A DNA stretch of 48,952 bases, the filler included, from Sphacelaria rigidula (taxonomy: Eukaryota), in NCBI GenBank assembly GCA_964200075.2. It is 3 parts of 3 records of this genome, joined end to end, with 100 filler letters (N's around TTAATTAATTAA, not from the genome) between each part and the next. Parts side by side here need not be neighbours in the genome. Positions count along the whole stretch, not along the records: positions 32,703 to 48,952 come from CAXNAA020001428.1; 2 more parts are not named here. One strand, given 5' to 3'. Both the position numbers and the translations under genes were made by a program. This document shows positions 10,308 through 46,188 of this stretch, piece after piece. The stretch's first letter is position 1; each line of letters opens with the position of its first letter. The notes below the pieces were generated by a model. The model ran no database searches. It had not been told where the DNA came from and saw only the letters and a list, made by a program, of their open reading frames with translations.

Positions 10308-11227
10308 AATCTATGGCCATACTGCACCGTCGGCGCATGTACATGTGGTCGAGGAGTTTGATGCCCGTACATATAGTCAAGCAATTTTGCGTTTTTCACA
10401 AATGTAAGACATATTTCATATTACTGGTTGTGTATCCATGTGCTTCAGTTTATGCCGAGGTTGTCAAGACGTTAAAAAAAGTCTCCAACTACGAAGCTGG
10501 TGCGTCACCCATTATAACCCCTACTACGTACACCTCTGAAGGTATGTGGAGGCCTCGACTCTTGGTACCCTCGTGTAACTCATCTCCTACCGTGCTACCG
10601 CCAGTTGGAGGTATTGCCTATAGGGTCGTGTACGTTACGATTGCGGTTTCGCAAGATTGATGACAACAAACCGTGTCACTGGTAGGTGGTGCTTTCTCCT
10701 CTGTGCTAGGCGACGCTTTTGCCCCTCAATCAGATAAAGGGGCCTGGGGTAAGTCTCCAACCAAAAGCAAAACGCATACACACAAACACGAAGCACGCTC
10801 TACGAAGCTCAAATGTTTTTCTTTCTGCATGCCAGCTTTTCAACCACTTCACGAGCTCGAATTGGCTTACAGGTGCGCGCCCAACGGTCCTCATTGTGCT
10901 CCAACCTTCCGCATGCTGGATTGAATCCTGAGCCAGAGAACTACTCATCAGGAAGCGGGTGTACAGTGCTTCACTGTTCGATTCAGCCAGTTGCCAAGAC
11001 GCTAGTGCTATTCCTGCGTGCTCGTGGCGGATCGTTTTGCGAAAACAACTTGTGTCAGAAATCCATGGCGCAGAAATCGGGTGAAAACGAAATGAAAGGT
11101 TCCTAACTTCCAGAGAAGCAGAACGTCGCAAAAAAAGTCCCAAAAACAATGTACCCGCATTTTAGGAGGAACGACAACGCCCCCCCCCCCCCCCCCCCCC
11201 ACACCCCCCTTCCCCCCCTTTCCGTAC

Positions 11228-12949: not shown

Positions 12950-13140
12950 CTGTTCATCCAGGACCAGATCGGGGTATGAGGGGTAGCAAACAACCGACAC
13001 GGTACGATAGGCTTCAATTTGTCGTTTTCTAATTAAGGGGCAAAGCCAACAACACGTAAAAATCACAAGAAGAGTGACAAAAATGGTATGTGGTACTCAA
13101 GATACCATGAGCATGCGAAGAATAAACAATAAAAACGTAC

Positions 13141-13379
13141 CTGACCGTTCCCTGGCCAGTGGTAACCATGTTCACCATCGGCGGGTCCGCCGGGTAGTTC
13201 TGCGGCAGGAAAACGTCGAACACAAACAGCCCACACTCGTAAGGGGTGTCTCGGGGGCCAGAAATGACGAAGCGACAGAAGCTCAGGGCCTCTTCGTCCA
13301 CCACCGCGAAAACGGCCGAGTCCGGGTGGGGGGGTCTCGGGAGCATCTTGGGGAGCTTCCGCATGAGTTCGGTGGCCAC
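13141..13379 (-). CDS. E2 ubiquitin-conjugating enzyme (BIRC6/UBE2Z/UBE2O-like UBC domain), exon A (upstream exons not located)
   Basis: Encodes VATELMRKLPK...SAVFAVVDEEALSFCRFVISGPRDTPYECGLFVFDVFLPQNYPADPPMVNMVTTGQGTV, which contains the UBC motifs 'GP.DTPY..G.F.FD...P..YP..PP' and 'TTG.G.VR'. Acceptor is CAG|GTG (AG at 13381-13380) and donor is AG|GTACGT at 13140. Confidence 0.93.
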
Positions 13380-13589
13380 CTGTTGGGAGGTTGGGGGGCA
13401 AACGTAACGCTTGTGAGACGGCAGGTTACAGAGAAGAATGGGGCGATACAGTTCGATACCGTCGAACGGAGTGACCTTCATGTCCCATTCGGCTGGCCAA
13501 GTAGTTGTTTCAACACGAATATCATAAACCATATGTGTGTGTTTGTGTGTGTGGGTATTGATTTTCTGCTTGCCTTAGTCGTTTGACCA

Positions 13590-16160
13590 TTGACCATGTA
13601 TCCCTGTTGAGACAGAGCACCGTTCCTACTCCTAATAGAGCCACCTTCAACATTCCGGTGCTCATTGCGTTCCTTCCATACATCACATGAAATTTTTACA
13701 TATGTTATCCCTGTCCTGTTTCGCCGTCTGTGGCCATCACCTATCTCGTAGTATAACAATCGTTTTCTCTATACTGCCCAATGTATCAAACGATTCCATG
13801 CTACCTTCGTTCACGTCCCGCATTTCCCCCTCTCTCACGTCCCGTTGCTCCTTGTATAGTTCATATTCTACCACTATATGACTTCTGCTCTCTATTGCTT
13901 TGCACAGGGGCAGTTATGTGCATCTGCTTCCTCCTCCACACGACCACTGGTGTATTTCTGTCTTCTTTCTGGCAGGCCCAGCTCCTCCACCCAAACTCGC
14001 AATTTCACTTTTTTCGCCGCGTTCATTTGGCAATGCAGATATCTTTTCATCTATATCCTCTATGTCAACCCCCCGTATATCTCCAGGTGTTCTTCCTCGT
14101 CTACTTTACGTCTCAGCGCTCCTTTTCCCCTTGTTTCTATCATGTCTCTTACTTTTGTTTTGTACCCCGCGCCTTCACCTATGGACAGTATTTCGTCTTG
14201 GTTTCCTCCGATCTCCTTCCATGCTTTCTCGACTTCTTAATATCACCTTACTACAGCCTTCCCTTTCGTACTTTTCTTTCATACAGCCCTAGTAAGCACA
14301 GTTGACAATCTCTTCCTCTGCATGTGCTTTACGCTATATTGCCACCTCAATTTCCTCATGTCTAAGCTTTAAGGGAATACATTCCCAACCCTGCTCTCAA
14401 TACTGTATTACTCGTCGCTTTCGAGCATCCCAGTATCTTCTTAGCTGCTGCCATCTGTACTGTTTCCAACTTCTTCGCCAACTTCACGTTCTCCTCCCAT
14501 ACTCTTCCTGCATATTCCAGCTTTGGTACGATCACGTTCATCAGGATACATCTATCAATCCTAGTGTCTAGGTACGAATCACTGAGGACCACGTCCATCC
14601 TTCCTATCCATGCCTGACCCTTTGCTATTACTTTATTTATCTGTGCATCCCAAGACCAGTTTCTTGACATCTCGACGCCAAGGTATGTATATTGGTGTAC
14701 GACCGGCAGTTCCTCTTACCTCCACTTCCATTGAAACTTTACCGGATTTTTCTTATCTTCGTTCCATACGAGCACCGCGCATTTGTTAACGTTCGTTGTT
14801 ACTTTCCATACCTTAGTGTATTCTAGAGCCTTTTTGTTTGTTTTTGCAATCCTTGTGTTATTCCTAGAATTCCCACAAAATCATCCGCGAACATCAATCC
14901 TGATACCATATCTTCAGCCACCTTGACCCCTTGCTTTGCTGCTTCTACAGTATTGCTATCATCAAGTCATTAATAAATACCTTGAACAAAGTGGATGATA
15001 ACGCACATCCTTGTGCAACTCCTTGTAAGATATATCGAAATATTTCGATATTTCGCCGTCTAGCATCATGTCATTTTTGGCACTTTCTGTCATCTTCTTT
15101 ACCATTCTCCACACCTTTTCTTTGATCCCCGTTTCCCACAACTTTTTCCACAGCCCATTTCTTCATACTGTGCCTTGGGTCTTTTGCACGCCCAGAAAGA
15201 AACAGCGCGTTGTCAGCCCCGGGTCTTTCCTACCTTGAATAATCTCACCTAGTGTCTATACATGGTCTACGCAACTACGGCTTAGCCTGAAACCTGCTTG
15301 TCCCCCGCTGTTCTTTCGTCCTTCTCTAGCATAGTTCCTACTCTGTCATTCATAATCGGGCGGTGCTACGATAGGTGTTACACTTTTTGTTTCTGGGTCT
15401 TGTTTTTGTAGGAGCCCACATATATGGGGCTTACTGTGGAACCCAAATTTCGGGGGACAGGACATGAAGATGCACACAGGGGCCTTTTCGTGAATCGGCA
15501 TCATTTTCAGTCTTTTTCATGTGAAGATAATGCCGATTCTCGAAATGATGCTTGCAACACCGTGAGAAACATTTTCGCTCATAAAGGGCAACCCTATCGT
15601 AGCATCACTCAATCTTACAGAACGTTTTCCCTACCGTGCTCAGTAGCGTTATCCCCCTGTAGTTCCCTGGGTCAGCCTTGTCTCTTTTTTTGAAAAGATT
15701 GATGATCACTCCTTCTCTCTACGTCTTGGGTGTGTACTCGCTTTCCCATATCCAATTATATAGCGTCATCACCATGGCAACATCATTCCTTTCCCCCTGT
15801 ACTTCAAAAACTTATTCACTATTCCGTCTGCCCCTGCTGCCTTTTAGTTCTTGAGTTTAGTCACGCACTCCTTCACTTCATCTCTGGTGGATTCTCTCTG
15901 CAATTATTTCGAGCCACTATCCTCCCGTTTCCATGTCTCAATATTTGCTCACGCCCGCTCATTTATGTCGTTTCCGAATTCCTTGTTGAGCTTCGTGTTA
16001 GTTTCTGGTGTTCCTAGTCTACGGTAGTGCTCGACTAGCACTCTTCTCTTCCCCTTCGAACTACTGACCTTTCTATCATTATGTGCCCGTAGTGTGGTTA
16101 TCCCGTTGTCTGTCTTTCTTGCCTGGTTTCCCATAACCCCTCTTATCGCTGCCGATATTT
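13590..16160 (-). mobile_element. Decayed non-LTR retrotransposon (LINE) reverse transcriptase region
   Basis: Frameshifted RT motifs are present: GKAAGADG..SE, LSTVGKTFCKIMNDRV, QAGFR..RSCVDH, GVAQGCALSSTLFKVFIND, VSGLMFADDFVG (about 14905-14870), YTYLGVE and LETVQMAAAKKILG. Confidence 0.92.
15358..15610. mobile_element. Sola2-type MITE inserted in the LINE
   Basis: TIRs are GGGCGGTGCTACGATAGG and GAGTGATGCTACGATAGG (GRG termini), with a 4-bp TSD AATC (15354-57, 15611-14). Excision restores the in-frame LINE peptide GKTFCKIMNDRV. Confidence 0.8.
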
Positions 16161-16179
16161 GTTTCATCCCGCCATCGAT

Positions 16180-16252
16180 GGGGGGGGGTGTACTAATGAT
16201 CATGCATGCCATAGTCATGAGACCATTGACTTCGCATCCCTACAAAGCCGGG
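16180..16252 (-). mobile_element. Poly-C-targeting retroposon-like repeat, 3' end (runs into gap)
   Basis: Reverse complement of the family 3' end (...CATGATCATTAGTACA) abutting a G9 tract. Confidence 0.75.
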
Positions 16253-16352
16253 NNNNNNNNNNNNNNNNNNNNNNNNNNNNNNNNNNNNNNNNNNNNTTAA
16301 TTAATTAANNNNNNNNNNNNNNNNNNNNNNNNNNNNNNNNNNNNNNNNNNNN
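16253..16352. other. Assembly gap with TTAATTAATTAA linker
   Basis: N runs flank an artificial all-frame stop linker. Confidence 0.97.
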
Positions 16353-16496
16353 GACTCGCCTGACACACCACGGCGCTTCGCGCTTGGTGATCGATTGCGA
16401 ACCTGGTCCGGCGAAAACCCGGCGTGCTCCGTCCCGGCTTTGCAGGGATGCGAGGTCACTGGTCTTGCTACTGCAGCATGCAAGATCATGAGTACA
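16353..16496 (+). mobile_element. Poly-C-targeting retroposon-like repeat, 3' end
   Basis: cccggcgtgctccgtcccggctttgcagggatgcgaggtc...gatcatgagtaca followed by C6. Confidence 0.75.
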
Positions 16497-17146
16497 CCCC
16501 CCAGAAAATTGACTGGCTTGCGGAGGCCGAGCATACCGAGCAGCTGGGTGTCCCATGCTTGGGGTCGGTTTCACCGATATCGCCCATATGAAGCGCTTCA
16601 CGCATTGTGAATTAAATGCGATGTATGGACATTTTTTTCGTGATCGTTTCGAGGCTAGTGTTGGCAAGGGCTATCGCGGCACCACTCGATGACGATAATT
16701 GGCGCGCAGAGGTAGACGCTCTGTCAAGCAACATATACAAGTTGGCGTTCATGGATATCTAGTGCAGTTTACACCCACAAGGTCGTCGCCATGTGTGTGT
16801 GTGATGATGCATGTACCAGATATTCCAGCAAGCAATCACGTTTATTGTTGTTCCTTTACCTGTTTGCTCGTTAGTTATATTTCGACTTTTGGGATTTTTT
16901 TCCTGTGTTGTTATCGTTGTTCGCTTCGTTTTGCTTGTATTTTCCCTCGTTTTGTTATGGTTATTTTCCATCTAGTGTTTTCTCTCTTCCCCCTTCCCTC
17001 ATTTTTTTCTTTTTTATTGTTTCCTCGCTTGATCTATTTTTCTTTTCTCGCCTCATTTCGTTCGTATTTTCCCGTTTTTTTGTTGTTATTTCACCTCGTT
17101 GTGCTTGTCTTCTCCCATGTGTTTTATCACCCCCCCAACCCCCGCT

Positions 17147-17190
17147 AGGTCAATGGTCTTATGACTATGGCATGCATGATCATGAGTACA
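17147..17190 (+). mobile_element. 44-bp 5'-truncated copy of the same family with 13-bp TSD
   Basis: Flanked by identical CCCAACCCCCGCT at 17134-17146 and 17191-17203. Confidence 0.85.
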
Positions 17191-18055
17191 CCCAACCCCC
17201 GCTCATCCCCCCCCCCCCTTCCCGCCCTGTTTTCCTCCGTTCTGTTTTCAAGGTGCGCATGGTATCTTTGCTACTTTTAGCCTCCATGGTTTTGAAGACC
17301 ACATCCGGATTGGGAAAAATCCAGTCTAGAGCATCCAAGGTCGTTGTCGATCCGCCCAGGTTCGTTTCTGTTGACCCATATAATCAATATCACACCAGTT
17401 CCAACTGTTCAGACCCGTGGTCAGTACTGTAGTAGTTGACGCGAGTAGTTACCCCCTGAGCGCGAAACTCGGGCGAAGACGTGTGGTTTCGTGGGATCTT
17501 TTGTGTCTGAAACGTCTACAAATACAGAGTATTTTTGTAATGTACTTCACAGTGCATTGCTCGCAGGAGTACTCGGAACGGGCTGATTTATCTTTTACGT
17601 AATACAGTGCTGAAGCTATGATAAGGGGCTGTCGGGATTTGCTCCGACGCCGGCAACAAATCATCTATACTCCGTATATATATTTACAAAAGTGAGTCAA
17701 AATGTACCCAATTTTGGCCCATTTGTGTATACCTTGAATATATATACATGAATGCTTTTACTTCCTAGTATCACGTTTCTCGCAGATCTTGACGGGAGTT
17801 ATTTGTGCTTTCACCTCCTGCGAAGTGTGGGGATAGATGAAGATCTACTTTACGATGAAAGTGGGACTTCTTTCCTTTTGAACCAACCGAATCAGTCAGT
17901 GACTCAGTGACTCAGTGAGCCAATCCTTGGAGTTGGAAGTTGGCTTAATTGAGTGTCATGTATGTCCACGCAAAGGTTCGTAACGTTGTGTGTTTTGAAT
18001 TTTGCGATAACTCCTTGATCCATTGATTGATCGTTGCACATTTTCTGATATTCAA

Positions 18056-23520: not shown

Positions 23521-24052
23521 CCCCATCGAAGATGCGGCTTTCGGTGTCCACACTAAAAACAAGTCTAAAATTACATGCTTACCAAGTGGTAAAGTCTACT
23601 GGTATTGGTTGACATGTTAACCCATACCGAAATGTGCAGCGAGCATTCCGGTGTTGTTGAGAAAGGTATGGAGCCCTGTTCTGAACACTCCGGTATGGTC
23701 CAAAAGCGTATTCATTTACCGATAGAGGATCTATTTCATACTTCCGTAAATGCCCGAATTTCAGCCGGTGTGCCCTACAGACAACAACATTTGAAATGTT
23801 CGCTCGATGAACAAGTCCGTGCAGGCGTTATCTGTCCGCCAAAAAAAATTCTCTGAATGTGGAGAGCTTTCTCTTGACGTTCTCCGAGTTCCGTGATTCC
23901 GGTCCTGTAATCGAGAGTCATGCATCATGAGGATCATTCCCCACGACCAACGGCTTGCTCGAAATTGCAAAACGAGTAAAAATTCGCGCACGATGCCCCC
24001 CCCAATGAGTACGCCCCCCCCCCTCCTCCCTATGCTCCGTCTCGAAAGGGAT

Positions 24053-24591
24053 CGCAGTTAGGACGAATAAAATCGTGATTCAACTCATGTTCATCATTCC
24101 AACGAATAAATCATACGATCCGTATCATTTGTAATTTACACAGGTTTTGAGCTCGTGACTCGTGCAGTGCACCGTTAAAGGTACTTGTTTCCCACCTCCC
24201 GTTCATGCGGGGTAAATCATGGGCACATATTTATTCCCTGTAGTTCATGTGGAATGAATCGATTGTACATGCCACGAACTCTTTATTTCATGAAGCGTGA
24301 ATGACATGTAAATCAATAACATGTGTGATCCGTGCGAGGTGAGCGCCCGTTTATTTTTTCCCCACCGTCGGGTTCATGCGGGACGATGAGTCGGCACATT
24401 GTTGAATCCTCTCATTGCATGGGCCTTGAATCGCGCGTGTACTTTTGTTCCATCTGTAATGCGCCAGAGATGACTCCACTGCATATGTTATCCACCCTCG
24501 GGTTCATGCGGGACCAACAGTCGGCATATGGTTGAATCCTGTCATTTCATGGGGAGTCAACTCATATGAACTCTGATTCGTCCTAACCGTG
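24053..24591. mobile_element. hAT-type MITE
   Basis: TIRs are CGCAGTTAGGACGAAT and CACGGTTAGGACGAAT. TSD is AAAGGGAT / AGAGGGAT (7/8 match). GTTCATGCGGG occurs three times internally. Confidence 0.75.
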
Positions 24592-25626
24592 AGAGGGATG
24601 CGTGGTCAATGGTCGAACGACGGAAGCAAGCAATAAATTAGTACACCCCCCTCCTCCTACCCGCGAAGCCTGCCTGGTGCGCGTCTAAGCGTCTCAATTG
24701 GGACCCTGTGGGCTTACTGTGGGTATACTTTGTTCAGATAAGGCAAATCAATCGGTCCATCGTAGGACCTCTGACGTAACCTCCATTTCCTCCCGAGTAC
24801 CAGCTTTGTAGTGACTGCAAGTGTAGTAGGACCGATGTCAAGCGAGCACTCGCCCACGTCCATGTGTCCGGGGTTATTCCGACATTTCTCCTCTCCCCTG
24901 AAGGATTAATCTGATGTCTTCGTTCGTTTTTGCTGTATTTTTTTTTTAATCGTGAGGGTTAGATTTAGGTTGGACTCAAAAAGGATGGGTGTATGATGAT
25001 ATTTATTTGAAGTATGGAGGATGATATACCGTCATGTTAGGGGTATGGAAATGATGACACCGATCATTTTCCACACGTCGTGGTTGCATAGTACAGTAGG
25101 GGGACCAATATGGATGATGGCACATACGGACAAGGTAGCCTTATTGCTGGTAGGTACACTGGTTAACAAAAAACAGGCTCTTATGTAAGATGACCTATAT
25201 ATCAAGAATTAGCGATCCATGTAATATGTGCCGTGGGGCTGGGAACCACCACACTTTTAAGACAGACACACGTACCGTTACCTTTTTACCTTCTTGTGTC
25301 TTACAGTAGCTATGTATTCTCCTCATTTCCTGTGAAAAAAGACGACAACAAAACATTTGGTATCGATGCGTGTGTTGCCGCATGTCATACTCCAGGAAGA
25401 AGAAGAACCAGAGGATGCTTGTTTGGTGGAGCCAGACTTGGACATCAAGCCCCCGCCGGTCATGAGGCATCAGTGGATAAGAGGAAGCATCGACGGTGCA
25501 CAGGCAAGGGAGGAAAAAACAAAAAGCTGAAGCGGAACAGAACAAGCACAAACGACAAAAGCGAAGATAAAGTTGGAAATTTTGATGCAACATCTCTGTT
25601 CCTTGAACTAACCCTCCTATTTTTGG

Positions 25627-27093: not shown

Positions 27094-28695
27094 CATCTAT
27101 TGCAATAGCAATAGAATCTACCGCAGTAGATGCCAATATTGTCGTCCGTAATGGCCATCAATCGACAAGTTTCTCTTTCTACGTATTGTCATCGGCAATG
27201 TCTATCGGCAATGCCCGGGCAGCAGTCTATTGTGGACCTACACCTAAAACTATTGCCGCCGACCGAATACATCGATCGATAGCTTTCCAAATATATTGAT
27301 GACGGCAATGGCTATCGATAGACGGTGTGCCAAATCTATTGATGACGGCGATGACTATTGATACATTGTTTACCAAACCTATTGATGACGGTGATGGCTA
27401 TTGATGAAGTGTGTGCCAGATCTATTGAGGGCGGCAATGAATACCGATAGATACACCCCAGAATCTATTCTGGTATACAATGCCGAGCGATATTCTCTGT
27501 CGTCTATTGCCACATCTATTGTACATTGCAATATACCATGTATAGAGCATATTATACTTTGTTGAAGCACGGTAGGGGAGCCGCGGGTGAACATGCAGTG
27601 GGTATATTATAACACTACTTGTGTAAATATGACGTCACGATTCTGCAAGTTTGGAACGGTTGTGTGATGTAGGAATCCGCAATATGTATCGACAACTTTC
27701 CACAAGTTTGTAGTTAGTGTGATGTCGATCCTTGGGGTTGGTTCCTCTGATGTATATGAGCGCTTACATAACCTTTTTGCGTGGGTGGAATGGGCTTTTA
27801 CTCTGGGCAATATACTATGTAATGAAACATTGTGGCTGCAAGAGCCTCGAAAACTTGACCGTTAATGTTCATCGTCAGTCATAATCGACTGGCATCACTG
27901 TCTATCGATAGCTATTGGAGGCGACAATAGATTCGGGACAAGGGGCCGAGTGCATCATTGCCGGTATCTAAAAAGCGCCCACCAATGTCTATTGCTGGTC
28001 ACAAAATAATCTGAATCGCAACCGCCAATGTCTATCGCTGGTCACAATGCAATCTGAACCGCCGCCACCAATATCTATTGCTGGCGACAATGGGAGCTGA
28101 ATGGCGTCGATCACTAGCTGTGTACGTCGTATGCACATTGTCGGTAGGTGTTTCTACCTTATTCCACAGAAGCTATGGCCAACTACAGCCTCAGGTAGTT
28201 GCGTGTTCATGTGTGAGAGATACTACCGTTGATGCCATAAGACCACTGCAGTGAGCTATATATTTACCAAAACCCATCTTTGGCGTCACTGGCTATCGAT
28301 AGAAGGTCCCTGAAACAATCAATTGTTGATGGCAATGATTATTGGACGGTACCCCAAATCCTTTGCCGGCGGCAGAGGCTATTGATAGATTGTTCACCAA
28401 CCCTATTAATGACGCCGAAGGCTACCGATAGACGGCTCACCAAATCTATTGATGACGGCTATTGCTATCGATAGATGGCTCACCAATTTTATTGATGATG
28501 ACAACGACTATCGATGGATGTTTCACCAAATCTATCATGTGTGGCAGTGGCTATCGATAAACACGCCCCGAATCAATCCATTGCGGTTAACGATGTCCAT
28601 CGACGGCTGGTGACCTTGACTTTTTTGTTATTGCCGTAGACTATCGATTGACTCTTGCACCATCTATTGTTCATTGCAATACATATCAATAGATG
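27094..28695. repeat. TCTATTG/CAATAGA subrepeat-rich element(s), probably a non-autonomous DNA transposon
   Basis: Many AAATCTATTGATGACGGC-like units. Blocks at 27280-27545 and 28290-28695 are related direct copies. Outer ends CATCTATTG...CAATAGATG are inverted. No TSD seen. Confidence 0.6.
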
Positions 28696-32232: not shown

Positions 32233-32600
32233 TATCCTGGTCCGGCGAGAACCCGACGTGCTCTGTCCCGGCTTTGTAGGGGCGGATCCCCGATGGGGTT
32301 GGCGTCGGTTAGCGATGGCGCTGTGAAACACGCCACTCACTACGTGAGCTAGGCGACCAGGTTACCGCTTTTTTCTTTGCGCGCTTGCATTTTTTTTGCG
32401 GTAACCAAAATGGCGGTCGAGCTAGATCATGTTGTGCGGCGTGGGAGAGCCTCAACTCCGCACAATGGGGGTGATCATTCCACGTAGTGTTGAAATGGTA
32501 AGGCACCCATGAGGCAGTGGCTGCCTCAGGGAGTGGCGATACCACAGAATAAAGCAACTCATTGTAGGCTGTCATCCAAATGCAAGATAATCAGTAGGCT
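32233..32600 (+). mobile_element. Poly-C-targeting family, longer copy (3' end lost in gap)
   Basis: Begins right after the C-tract at 32216-32232 and aligns with 42821-43156. Confidence 0.75.
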
Positions 32601-32602
32601 TC

Positions 32603-32702
32603 NNNNNNNNNNNNNNNNNNNNNNNNNNNNNNNNNNNNNNNNNNNNTTAATTAATTAANNNNNNNNNNNNNNNNNNNNNNNNNNNNNNNNNNNNNNNNNN
32701 NN
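32603..32702. other. Assembly gap with TTAATTAATTAA linker
   Basis: N runs plus artificial linker. Confidence 0.97.
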
Positions 32703-32730
32703 GCGCGGGGGCCGGCGGCCGGGGGGGGGT

Positions 32731-32768
<38 letters not shown>

Positions 32769-39465: not shown

Positions 39466-40086
39466 AGGCGGTCTAACCATTCATTCTGTGGCATTTTGTG
39501 GTTTTCTCGTGATCGGCGATTTTCTTGGGCTCTTTTTGCTTGCCACCGCTTAGACTCACTTTTATGTCAACGAATCTCGATTTGTACAAATATGGGGATA
39601 TCAGCCCGTCTACAGGCGGGTTTCTCCCTTGGAATGATTTTTCGTACTCCAGTCCCTTGGGTCATTCTGGTGATTCTCCGATTTTCTGGGCGTTGGCTTT
39701 CGATACATCACCTTTCTGTTGAATCCGGGACACTCCCGCATCTCCCCCGATTTTTTCCCCATTAAAAAAAAAAAAATCGGGGGAGATGCGGGAGTCTCCC
39801 GATTTGAGGAGAGAGGTGGTATACCGAAAGTACACGTCCAGAGAATCGGAGAAGTGATCTAGCTTGCTCACAGCTAGTCGAAAAACATTGCCCAACCGAA
39901 TGGGGTCCGAAAAATCAATCCACGGGAGAAAATCACCTGTAGACGGACTGAAATCCTCATATTTGTACAAATCGAGATTCGTTGACATAAAAGTGAGTCT
40001 AAGCGGTGGCAAGCAAAAAGAGCCCAAGAAAATCGCCGATCACGACAAAATCACAAAATGCCACAGAATGAATGGTTAGACCGCCT
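39466..40086. mobile_element. Young fold-back element with ~180-bp TIRs
   Basis: AGGCGGTCTAACCATTCATTCTGTGGCATTTTGTG...(to about 39643) is a near-perfect inverted copy of 39909-40086. Internal hairpin at 39726-39801. Confidence 0.9.
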
Positions 40087-41603: not shown

Positions 41604-42748
41604 TCACAGTGGGGATATTAACATATTTGTATCCGCTCCACATTCCGAGAATGTATATATATATATATATGTACTCAATAGTGGGTGACTTACGGGCTGA
41701 CCGGTCATCGGGGGTCCTGCCACGTCTCAGCCCATATTCTTACTCTTCGGTATTTTCGGTCGATCGAGCCTGTCCCGATCATATTTGCGAAGAAATGTAC
41801 AGTTTTATTTTTTCGAAATTCTATCTACTCATTGCGCTAGAGCCGGGAAACCATGTTTCATTGTCAATAACACTCTTCTGCTAAACGCGGTGTTTACCCG
41901 TATCGCCCGATAACACCAACTAACACTGACTTGAGCACTACGTTTCGAGGATGATCAGTTTATTGTACCAAAAATCACCGACACTAGCAATTTCGAGTTC
42001 TATCGACGAGTAGTACGCGAGGAAAACCCCAAAACACCCCTGAATAGTTCGACCGCCCACTGCTGTATCTTAAATTAGCGGTCGAAGTCCGTAACAAAAG
42101 GCATACCTCCCACAGATAAGGATTGCCCAAAGTGAATTGAAATATTTCAACGAGAAGCGCGACTGTGGCCGAGCGTTTAAAATCGGCACCCGGCCAAGAT
42201 TAATGACCTGTTCAAAATCAGGCGAAGGACTAAAACGTGGGACATGTCCTGTTTCACTGCAGTGCAGCACAAGCACATTCGCGCCTTCTCTCATGTGCTG
42301 ACATTGCGAAGACGGTCTGGTCCCAGCTGGGATTGCGTGGGCTGCGATATTGCGGTTGTGTTCGTCTTTGCAGAAAATGGTATTGACGGCGCGCAGTGCT
42401 GTGTACACACTCACTGTTAAATACTTCATGGTTCGTTTGCTGTCGAGTTTTCCGTAAAACTGTCAAGGCGCTGCCCGCTGCTGTGGCAGTCTGTTTGGCT
42501 GGTGCCGTGCGTTGGTGTCATGAGGTTGGAAGGCGTTTAATGCCAGACCAAGGACTGCGGGGCTGCTGATCTGATCTGGCTTGATCAGACCGAATATGAG
42601 TTTGGTAAAAGTGTATAGTCAGCTAGCGTCTCAGTTCCCGAAGCACCTACGATCGAGGAACGCTTGCAAGCCAGCTCGTTCGGTGAGATGTGAAAAGGCA
42701 CTAAACAGAAGGCACTTTCTGCGATAGCCCCCCCCCCCCCCTCCCAAA

Positions 42749-42800
42749 GCGAGCGAGGTCAATGGTCTGATGACTATGGCACGCATGATCATGAGTACAT
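42749..42800 (+). mobile_element. 52-bp 5'-truncated poly-C-targeting copy with 15-bp TSD
   Basis: CCCCCCCCTCCCAAA at 42734-48 and 42801-15. Confidence 0.85.
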
Positions 42801-42820
42801 CCCCCCCCTCCCAAACCAGC

Positions 42821-43237
42821 TTGGTCCGGTGAGAACCCGGCGTGCTCTGTCCCGGCTTTGTTGGGGCGGACCCCCGATGGGGTTGGCGTCGGTTGGCGAT
42901 AACGCCGTGAATAACACCACTCACTGCGTAAGCTAGGCGACGAGGTCACCGATTTCGTTTTGCGCGCTTGCGTTTTGCTTGCGGTAACCATAGTTGTAGT
43001 CGAGCTAGATCATAATGTGCGAAGTGGGAGAACTTCAATTCCGCACAATGGGGATGATTGTACTACGTGGTGTTTAAATGGTGAGACACCCATGAGGCAG
43101 TATACAAGCCGTCGCTGTCTCTGGAAATGGCGATACCTGAAAATAAAGCAACTCATNNNNNNNNNNCCCGTCCCGGCTTTGTAGGGATGCGAGGTCAATG
43201 GTCATACGTGACTATGGCATGCATAATCATGAGTACA
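42821..43237 (+). mobile_element. ~417-bp poly-C-targeting copy with TSD
   Basis: Flanked by CCCCCCTCCCAAACCAGC (42803-20) and CCCCCCTC--AAACCAGC (43238-53). Ends CATAATCATGAGTACA and contains a 10-N gap. Confidence 0.8.
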
Positions 43238-43939
43238 CCCCCCTCAAACCAGCCTAAAACTGTCACGAAGGAAAGGGTCATACAGCGCCTGATGTTTGGT
43301 TTCGGGCTGCATGAAGCGCCTTATGTGGGCGATATTGGCGAAAACGAACCCAACTGTAAGAATTCCCAGCTGCTCGTTGTGCTCGGCTTCTTTCACTTTG
43401 ATTTACGTGTAGATTTTGCCTCTCCAAACCAGCCAATTTTTTGGGGGGATGCTATCGCAGAAAGTGCCAGAGTGATAGAGAATACGAGTAAATCAGAGTC
43501 TTGAAGAATCAAGTGGATATTAACCTATCATTGTGTGAAGCTATAACTCGGGTGCTGACTTGTTGTGGACACGATAATAAAATTCGAAGCAGGTTGTTGG
43601 ATCAACCACCCTGCCTTGTTTACCTGCGTGTTTGTCGTGCATGAGCGTTTCCCCATTTTATTGGGGGACTGTTGTACTTTGTCTGTTTTGTGTCGAAACA
43701 TGTGAGTGGGAGCGTGATCGGCCGTGAGATGATACCGCACGAACGCTAGGTTCTAGGCTGCTCTGATGTCGTTTCCAAGTAGAATGGTGCAATCTGATTG
43801 GCAGTTACCGAGTAAAACAGCCCCGCTTGCTTCATGTCCTTGCTTTAGTGTACAACCCCTGTGCCATCACAATATACACTGCAGTATGCTGCACCGTACT
43901 GCAGCGCAGTGTACTGCACTCCCTGTTTCCTCTCGTTCG

Positions 43940-45273: not shown

Positions 45274-45710
45274 GGAATAAAATAAAATAAAAACGTACTG
45301 TAGGTACTTTCAGACCCGCGATCAACGTTTTCCTCTCTTTCGAGCAACCAGGTCTCAGAATTCGGAATTCGTATTCGCGGTGATCCGAATCAGCGATGAT
45401 CCGTCCGACCATTGAATGTTTGCAAACGGGCATAGCTGTCACACATGTCGAAAAAAATTAACCAAGCAACGCTACCATGCAAGTATGTTCGGATCGGTCC
45501 CAACACCTGAACGTGTGAAGAGGACGCGTTCAACGCCGGTCGTGTGAAAAGCTCTGCTTGAGTGTCTCCCAAAAAGGTGCGTTCATGCACAGAAAATGTA
45601 GATGCTTGTGACGTCGGAAATCACGAGTTCGCATAGGGAATGAGTGACACGCACTGGAACTTTACGCAACATCATCATTTTTCAATTAAAGTGTGCCCAA
45701 ATCTGGGGGG

Positions 45711-45726
45711 TGTACTCATGATCATG
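45711..45726 (-). mobile_element. 16-nt terminal fragment of the poly-C-targeting family with 8-bp TSD
   Basis: CTGGGGGG|TGTACTCATGATCATG|CTGGGGGG. Confidence 0.7.
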
Positions 45727-46188
45727 CTGGGGGGGGGCGTGCTCATCTGTTGCTTGCCTTGGCCATTGCACGATTGACCGTGCACCCCTTTCGAAACAGA
45801 GGACGATTTCTGCTCCTTATAGAGACACCTACGAATTTTTGGGTGCTCATTACGTGTCTTCCGTACACGACACGAAAACCTGTACATATATTTTCCTCTC
45901 ACTGCCTCGTCTTCCGTGGCCACAATCTATCTCCTAGTATGGCGACCATTTTCTCGCTAACATCTTTTGTACCAATCGATTTCATTCCACCTGAATGGGG
46001 AGGGTGGAGGGGTCCTCGAATTCCTAAACATTGAGGTAACGAGCGTAATCAGACCTCTCGAACTGAAATTGTTTCGCGTGTCAAAGAGTATATTTCTGGA
46101 CTAGGAGCGAGAATGCAGACTGTTTTCGAGAGAATGGTACGGCTTGACCGCGAATGGAAAATATCGAATGGAAATGGTGGTTGAAAAC

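Follow-up and report, generated by a model that had tools for sequence, protein, structure and literature searches.

A non-coding retroposon family inserted at C-runs in the genome of the brown alga Sphacelaria rigidula, and a LINE that shares its ends

The genome of Sphacelaria rigidula very probably contains a non-coding, non-autonomous retroposon of about 560 nt (family A) that is mobilised in trans by a LINE with an AP-type endonuclease and a reverse transcriptase (LINE B). The identity of family A and of LINE B as its partner can be given with high confidence. Their junctions show that an APE-RT system inserted them at C-runs by target-primed reverse transcription, and the ends of the elements, the target site duplications (TSDs), the C-runs that existed before insertion, the domains of the partner and the ends common to both families were all observed directly. 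The analysis started from a stretch of 48,952 nt (assembly GCA_964200075.2, referred to as the window), in which N-TTAATTAATTAA-N spacers at 16253-16352 and 32603-32702 join separate contigs; both spacers lie within family A copies. The genome searched comprised 244 Mb in 27,214 contigs.

Ends, structure and window copies of family A

A sequence-only reading of the window had described a retroposon with a fixed 16-nt 3' end, variable 5' ends and four visible TSDs. The 16-mer and the cited copies were all present, and the four TSDs lay where they had been placed; the window held six matches at no more than two mismatches, compared with none in 100 shuffles. The genome-wide search called for by that reading returned 3072 exact matches and none for the reversed pattern used as control. 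CC, which has a frequency of 5.8% in the window, directly followed 2623 of the 3072 exact matches. For the junctions, 90 of the first 100 listed sites were used, the other 10 being left out as they stood at contig starts. The first base past the element was C in 83 of these 90 and A in one, so that abutting a C-run is the usual condition but not the invariable one that had been claimed, since some copies end at (CA)n (e.g. L162).

The consensus of family A, built from nine full copies, has 561 nt, is non-coding and contains no ORF. Alignments of at least 300 nt were 78-95% identical to it, with a median of 90% (67 alignments, some of overlapping loci). In the full-length form the first ~47 nt regularly recur in the stretch between ~100 and ~50 nt from the 3' end, a direct terminal redundancy that leaves out the last ~50 nt. 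The 5' ends were scattered, with clusters at positions 455-471 (12/74) and 255-265 (8/74) which could represent short subfamilies, stalls of the reverse transcriptase or processing sites; the first cluster corresponds to a 3' module of 100 nt, the length that RTEX-N2_Ec32 shares with RTEX-N1. No tRNA was detected at 10 loci with full or near-full copies, no Rfam family matched family A at six loci scanned at E<=5, and comparison with the proteins P0001-P0050 gave a match only in the last 15 codons. Family A did not show what defines a SINE in the strict sense, a Pol III promoter within a 5' head derived from tRNA, 5S or 7SL RNA. An HDV-like ribozyme suspected by eye was dropped, as the canonical order was not matched.

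The inverted pair at 16183-16252 and 16433-16502 might suggest that the 16-mer is the terminal inverted repeat (TIR) of a DNA transposon or MITE. However, this pair spans a contig spacer, and it is no evidence of TIRs because the two copies face each other across N/TTAATTAATTAA filler between contigs. The 5' and 3' ends of full copies are unrelated, neither TIRs nor a fixed-length TSD were found in family A, copies are 5'-truncated with TSDs of 8-18 bp, and the real MITE at this place is the host of the insertions, with a fixed 4-bp TSD. A DNA transposon is therefore extremely improbable. The 5' truncation, the variable TSDs and the fixed 3' end bear out the earlier interpretation of a target-primed retroposon without poly-A.

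Table 1. Copies of family A and LINE B and their target sites in the window
Feature	Position	Strand	Remarks
Host MITE (~250 bp without inserts)	42711..43468	.	29 paralogs; TIRs at 42711 and 43468; 4-bp TSD
Pre-existing C-run and left TSD (42734-42748) of short copy	42728..42748	+	run also in empty paralogs; TSD 42734-42748 = 42801-42815, 15 bp exact
Short family A copy, 5'-truncated	42749..42800	+	matches the family over 47 nt (42753-42799, where the element ends), with a few untemplated bases besides; one extra T at 42800
Right TSD of short copy (42801-42815), overlapping left TSD of full copy (42803-42820)	42801..42820	+
Full-length family A copy	42818..43237	+	middle lost in 10-N gap (43157-43166); first ~47 nt recur subterminally; ~42880-42920 homologous to LINE B 5' head; 3' stem-loop at 43194-43218
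Right TSD of full copy	43238..43253	+	against 42803-42820, 16 vs 18 bp, 2-nt indel
44-nt family A copy (17147-17190)	17134..17203	+	TSD 17134-17146 = 17191-17203, 13 bp exact
16-nt family A copy (45711-45726)	45703..45736	-	within C-run behind LINE B 3' end; TSD 45703-45710 = 45727-45734, 8 bp
Family A 3' end at G9 (16180-16188)	16189..16252	-	directly upstream of truncated LINE B; cut by contig spacer
Family A 3' part adjoining C6	16353..16496	+	cut by contig spacer
5' two thirds of full-length family A copy, behind C-run	32236..32602	+	cut by contig spacer
5'-truncated LINE B 3' end	45736..45990	-	blastn 72%; tblastn with P0001
5'-truncated, frameshifted LINE B (RT and C-terminal CCHC)	13562..16180	-	tblastn 57-77% identity, E 2e-139; residues ~570-1360 of P0001; 3' end adjoins CCC(AC)n; 5' limit approximate
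LINE B 3' ends adjoining C-runs (24004-24013, ~24033-24052, 24591-24642)	23996..24650	+

The copies in the window are listed in Table 1. At two of them the earlier description had to be changed. The copy given as 417 nt is there with its TSD, but it is a full-length element of ~560 nt interrupted by the 10-N gap, and contigs of three sequencing runs continue past 43156 with the missing family A sequence. Position 32233 had been given as a further copy abutting a C/G-run; it is actually a 5' end, and the C-run there is thus a left flank. Contigs of four sequencing runs (from two studies, one of them possibly the source of the assembly), consulted for orthologous empty sites, break at the repeats and provided none. 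One contig (X3) bridges the copy at 45711 and contains the insertion; contig joints across 42733-43272 were left uncounted as their short sides lie in multicopy DNA.

Other features of the window were recorded beside these copies. An exon of a ubiquitin-conjugating-enzyme-domain gene (UQ_con, Pfam, E 3e-10) lies at 13029-13574 on the minus strand, directly downstream of a LINE B 3' end. A G36 run at 32721-32766 and a C21 run at 11180-11218 have no A or B end adjoining, arrays of a 43-nt tandem unit occupy 27230-28578, and inverted repeat arms of 196 nt, 92% complementary, at 39466-40086 surround a second internal palindrome and probably form a foldback or MITE element.

C-runs present before insertion

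Flanks were usable at 74 sites, 16 having been dropped because a flank was missing or consisted of N. A strict TSD was defined as at least 8 nt with at least three non-C, and was found at 26 of the 74 sites (lengths 8-18), compared with 0-3 of 74 in 20 flank swaps over the same sites. The other 48 had no strict TSD; since copies have a median identity of 90% to the consensus, many TSDs are expected to have decayed or to be all-C. The left flank carried C5+ in 49 of the 74 sites against a background of 2.8%, which was taken at loci of a nested ~248-bp MITE and is if anything too high, hence conservative, because this MITE carries C-runs itself. Among C7+ runs at the background loci, one in 73 adjoined an A or B tail, a figure set aside as biased by the same MITE C-runs. 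At the 26 TSD sites the left C-run was longer than the right one in 17, equal in four and shorter in five, which places the nick mostly inside the run, a comparison weakened by the unreliable homopolymer lengths of a short-read assembly. Extra C's sometimes appear at the right where the left run is shorter. The distance from the junction to the end of the TSD was 9-19 nt, and in 10 of the 74 sites an older A or B tail immediately preceded the family A copy.

The MITE that hosts two of the window insertions provided empty sites for comparison. Its subterminal C-run was the target of both the short and the full copy. In nine of 11 copies inspected this MITE had its 4-bp TSD, the other two being mis-delimited by the script. 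Among 29 paralogous copies, C5+ was present at the insertion site in 23 and C4+ in 26, and a retroposon was found there in only one. The C-run therefore belongs to the target and not to the element, as the first reading had supposed. The same run has been struck independently by LINE B (L323) and by family A (L185 and L028), besides twice in the window. The ~248-bp MITE is abundant (L102-L130, L313-L341), its subterminal C/G runs form a repeated landing pad for retroposons, and copies of it in turn interrupt LINE B (L095, L202).

These junctions also bear on whether there is true targeting at all. The C-run might be a tail of the element's own, as the C behind nearly every 3' end would allow, or a fragile site, broken at G-quadruplexes and patched by RNA, and the four-tract G4 motif does occur in eight of the 26 rebuilt empty sites. 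The form in which the run is only the element's own tail is refuted: C-runs lie left of the element, beyond the TSD, and in empty paralogs. Furthermore, the orientation of the element to the run is fixed, the range of TSD lengths is narrow and 18 of the 26 sites are without the G4 motif. Absence of targeting is thus hardly probable in either form. As to recognition of G-quadruplexes by an endonuclease, a variant proposed at the outset, the 18 sites without the motif show that it is not needed; a G-quadruplex requirement was rejected, the longest run being only 4-5 C in eight of the 26 rebuilt sites.

LINE B and its relatives

The search for an autonomous APE-LINE by upstream extension, which the sequence-only reading had proposed, was successful and led to LINE B, which shares the 3' end of family A. 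LINE B is ~5.8 kb long, summed from C4819 positions and L095, and CC directly follows its end in 3209 of 3662 exact matches. The sequence upstream of this end was found to encode a reverse transcriptase and an AP-type endonuclease, together with a CCHC motif on the C-terminal side, in an ORF that reaches the last bases. Pfam identified RVT_1 in the genomic fragments of LINE B (E 1e-15) and, weakly and under the curated cut-off, Exo_endo_phos(_2) (E 6e-4). The nearest homologs, P0001 and P0003, are full-length single EN-RT ORFs of 1360 and 1328 aa, 73-75% identical, which end as LINE B does. The cluster of P0003 as well as P0005 carry Ectocarpus names, and the nearest named relatives of LINE B are Ectocarpus proteins at 70%. 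LINE B is provisionally assigned to the RTE-X clade by homology to Ectocarpus proteins and matching annotation; the formal criterion for this clade is an RT phylogeny that groups an element with RTEX reference elements. The nearest solved structure to the LINE B-type protein was that of L1 ORF2p (E 7e-21).

Both ends connect family A with LINE B. The last 52 nt of family A are 81% identical to those of B-type LINEs, and positions 63-103 (41 nt) match the 5' head of LINE B at 78-85%, so that both the head and the tail of family A are LINE-like. Its ~350-nt middle gave no match to LINE B. All 30 LINE B loci inspected had the same 5' end, which by eye followed a C-rich flank almost throughout and in six of the 30 stood right behind an A or B tail. 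The 5' UTR of LINE B contains a tandem array of ~64-nt units with variable copy number (L223-L226, L232-L234). In the head common to family A (positions 60-108) and LINE B (L236-L265) a hairpin is possible, with a loop complementary to a stretch past an A-rich linker, which might make an H-type pseudoknot; in the two families compared there were no two-sided changes, and there was no Rfam match. None of the LINE B copies read had an intact ORF, and the tail is only ~81% alike; family A may thus in fact be driven by another paralog, or by one that is extinct. A search with P0049 for a paralog having family A's own tail led to family-B-like RT matches.

A driver of another kind, a Chlamys-type Penelope-like element with GIY-YIG endonuclease and RT, would be compatible with some of these features. 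Such elements target (CA)n and (C)n, and the pLTRs that they form carry a tail on one side (PMC8557442), Ectocarpus does have Chlamys (PMC12477816), and family A has a ~47-nt redundancy without the last ~50 nt, tandem copies and some (CA)n targets. However, both ends of family A match an APE-RT LINE with the same target, its TSDs of 8-18 bp are clear, and the row for Ectocarpus Chlamys-1 reads (A)n at the 3' end (PMC12477816). The shared ends largely refute a Chlamys driver, which is very unlikely.

Sixteen loci with relatives were collected from metagenomes, five of which reach the 3' end. The close relatives L296, L297 and L303 end like LINE B, and all three adjoin C8+. At L303:2715-2805, in another sample, the C-run of a third LINE paralog is followed at once by an A-like element, and hence the non-autonomous family occurs outside this genome as well. 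The distant relatives L298 and L299 (37-40% identical to P0001) contain the subterminal motif nearly letter for letter as in family A, followed by T/A repeats and not by C-runs. The 5-bp stem of this motif was paired in 95% of 40 cells, in an alignment for which the analyst had chosen the structure and in which one row was mis-registered. Two pairs were changed on both sides in L298 and L299, which count as one event since these loci are related. Folding support for the stem-loop was weak (z +1.3 to -1.8), and the two family A copies folded prefer another hairpin. The motif also appears as a conserved peptide: of the 33 homologs in which the CCHC motif is retained, 25 have this peptide within their last 45 residues. 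The motif's survival in non-coding family A and across a change of frame (P0033, P0034) favours a role in the RNA. A distant homolog, P0046, has a ubiquitin-protease-type domain (PF00443, precomputed) ahead of the endonuclease. No relative of the elements was found among viral contigs.

Proposed priming at G-runs and comparison with known elements

From these junctions a course of insertion can be proposed. Family A would be transcribed with the help of its LINE-derived 5' head, the transcript would read a few bases into the flanking C-run, and its RNA would end in oligo(C) and not in poly(A). The ORF protein of LINE B may bind a small stem-loop that A and B have in common, ~20-35 nt from the 3' end, as sequence conservation suggests, a recognition like that in stringent LINEs. 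Judging from the junctions, the AP-endonuclease would nick the G-rich strand within a run of about four or more G; the freed G-rich 3' end would pair with the oligo(C) of the RNA and prime reverse transcription, which would often stop early. The second strand would be cut ~9-19 nt further on, and the product is the observed TSD starting with C's. As part of the run is duplicated with every insertion, the target is renewed and copies pile up head to tail.

Pairing of the nicked G-strand with oligo(C), an L1-like priming with C/G in place of A/T, is the best mechanism at hand and is moderately favoured. Its main rival is pure endonuclease specificity, in which the same elements would insert at G-runs solely through the endonuclease and the RNA would end at the last templated base. 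The right C-run is no longer than the target run in 21 of the 26 TSD sites, where no RNA-derived C is needed, and the loop before the conserved S-I/V-L/I-D-Y/F motif of the endonuclease differs between the algal proteins (P0001, P0003) and the distant relatives. In APE LINEs this loop sets the choice of target. However, in five of the 26 sites (e.g. L005, 7 vs 4) the right run exceeds the target, as templated C's or slippage would give, and donor copies have C's behind them which a read-through RNA would carry. Specificity by the endonuclease only is accordingly considered rather unlikely.

The sequence-only reading had known of no family that targets C/G homopolymers, and had named an existing annotation of such targeting as an argument against its proposal. 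Such annotations exist: RTEX-1, -2, -N1 and -N2_Ec32 are entered for Ectocarpus with (C)n ends and C-rich TSDs (PMC12477816), and Chlamys PLEs target (C)n (PMC8557442). According to Dinatale et al. 2025, RTEX-N1_Ec32, of ~600 bp and with more than 6000 copies, is the most abundant family of Ectocarpus, and its 3' end is common to RTEX-1 and -2 (PMC12477816). The table entries read "(C)n 3'", "(C)n termini/TSD", "C-rich" TSD, "weak homology to 5' of RTEX-2" and "can be present in tandem", and for RTEX-N1 "60 bp 3' end 83%"; among the Ectocarpus LINE rows, C-rich TSDs are given for RTE-X only, with (CAA)n in RTE rows and (CA)n in CRE (PMC12477816). RTEX-1 has also been reported from Saccharina (PMC4421812).

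The pair of family A and LINE B is most probably the counterpart of RTEX-N1_Ec32 and RTEX-1/-2_Ec32 of Ectocarpus sp. 7, a correspondence made through published descriptions and not by sequence alignment. Both systems have a non-autonomous element of ~600 bp with thousands of copies, tandems and C-rich TSDs, a 3' part of ~60 bp ~83% like the LINE (here 52 nt at 81%), weak homology to the LINE 5' end, and a partner with a single EN-RT ORF, 5.5-5.9 kb (here ~5.8 kb) and a (C)n 3' end (PMC12477816). They differ in the length of the non-autonomous element (561 vs 604-607 nt), and in the present genome the copies are older (median 90% to the consensus) and no intact LINE ORF was seen. The parts of PMC12477816 at hand contain no junction analysis or mechanism, and in the literature covered, which excluded Repbase Reports and most subscription journals, no paper was found on junction geometry or oligo(C) priming for these LINEs. 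Added here are the pre-existing C-run, the nick usually inside the run, the dispensability of a G-quadruplex, the LINE-like head and tail of family A and the shared 3' stem-loop.

Several other systems are alike in part. Chlamys PLEs share the targeting of (C)n and (CA)n, 5' truncation, tandems and a short direct terminal redundancy, but they have GIY-YIG and a PLE RT with TSDs mostly not discernible, whereas LINE B has an APE and a LINE RT (PMC8557442). The bipartite non-autonomous LINEs Bov-A, RTESINE1/2 and WALLSI3 likewise combine a LINE 5' part with a 3' tail and lack an ORF and a small-RNA head; as producers of such elements, the available text names only RTE, Ingi, Vingi and R2 (PMC5786205). 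Family A has both LINE parts, but its short head (41 nt, positions 63-103) is set back from the extreme 5' end by ~60 extra nt, which start with a copy of the subterminal segment. In L1, the T-run of the nicked strand pairs with poly(A) for priming. The proposed nicking of a homopolymer strand, and its pairing with an RNA that ends in a homopolymer, would be shared with human L1, as is a TSD of ~15 bp (PMC4245944), and a 3' stem-loop is shared with ZfL2-1 and ZfL2-2, in which ORF2 recognises it (PMC4176376). The present elements differ from L1 and ZfL2 in having a C/G instead of an A/T run, no poly(A), and a stem-loop within the last ORF codons with almost no 3' UTR. We tentatively propose, as a possibility somewhat short of probable, that brown-algal RTE-X LINEs are a C/G mirror of L1: the stem-loop would have been kept in the last ORF codons, and the algal branch would have switched from A/T-rich targets to nicking of G-runs, with an oligo(C) RNA end made by read-through without polyadenylation, so renewing and spreading its own target.

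For the genome of S. rigidula, more than 6,700 exact ends of A and B, many of them at contig edges, indicate that the pair shapes both the genome and the gaps of its assembly. For the homologous Ectocarpus system, (C)n ends and C-rich TSDs had been recorded before, as remarks in a supplement (PMC12477816); the junction data, namely the pre-existing run, the nick inside it, the TSD of 9-19 nt and the self-renewing target, turn these into a testable mechanism. The 3' stem-loop shared with distant relatives that have another flanking repeat offers a natural comparison for target change in LINEs. If the C/G mirror of L1 is true, these LINEs would provide an AP-endonuclease/RT pair with a homopolymer-G preference, whose specificity loop could be tested.
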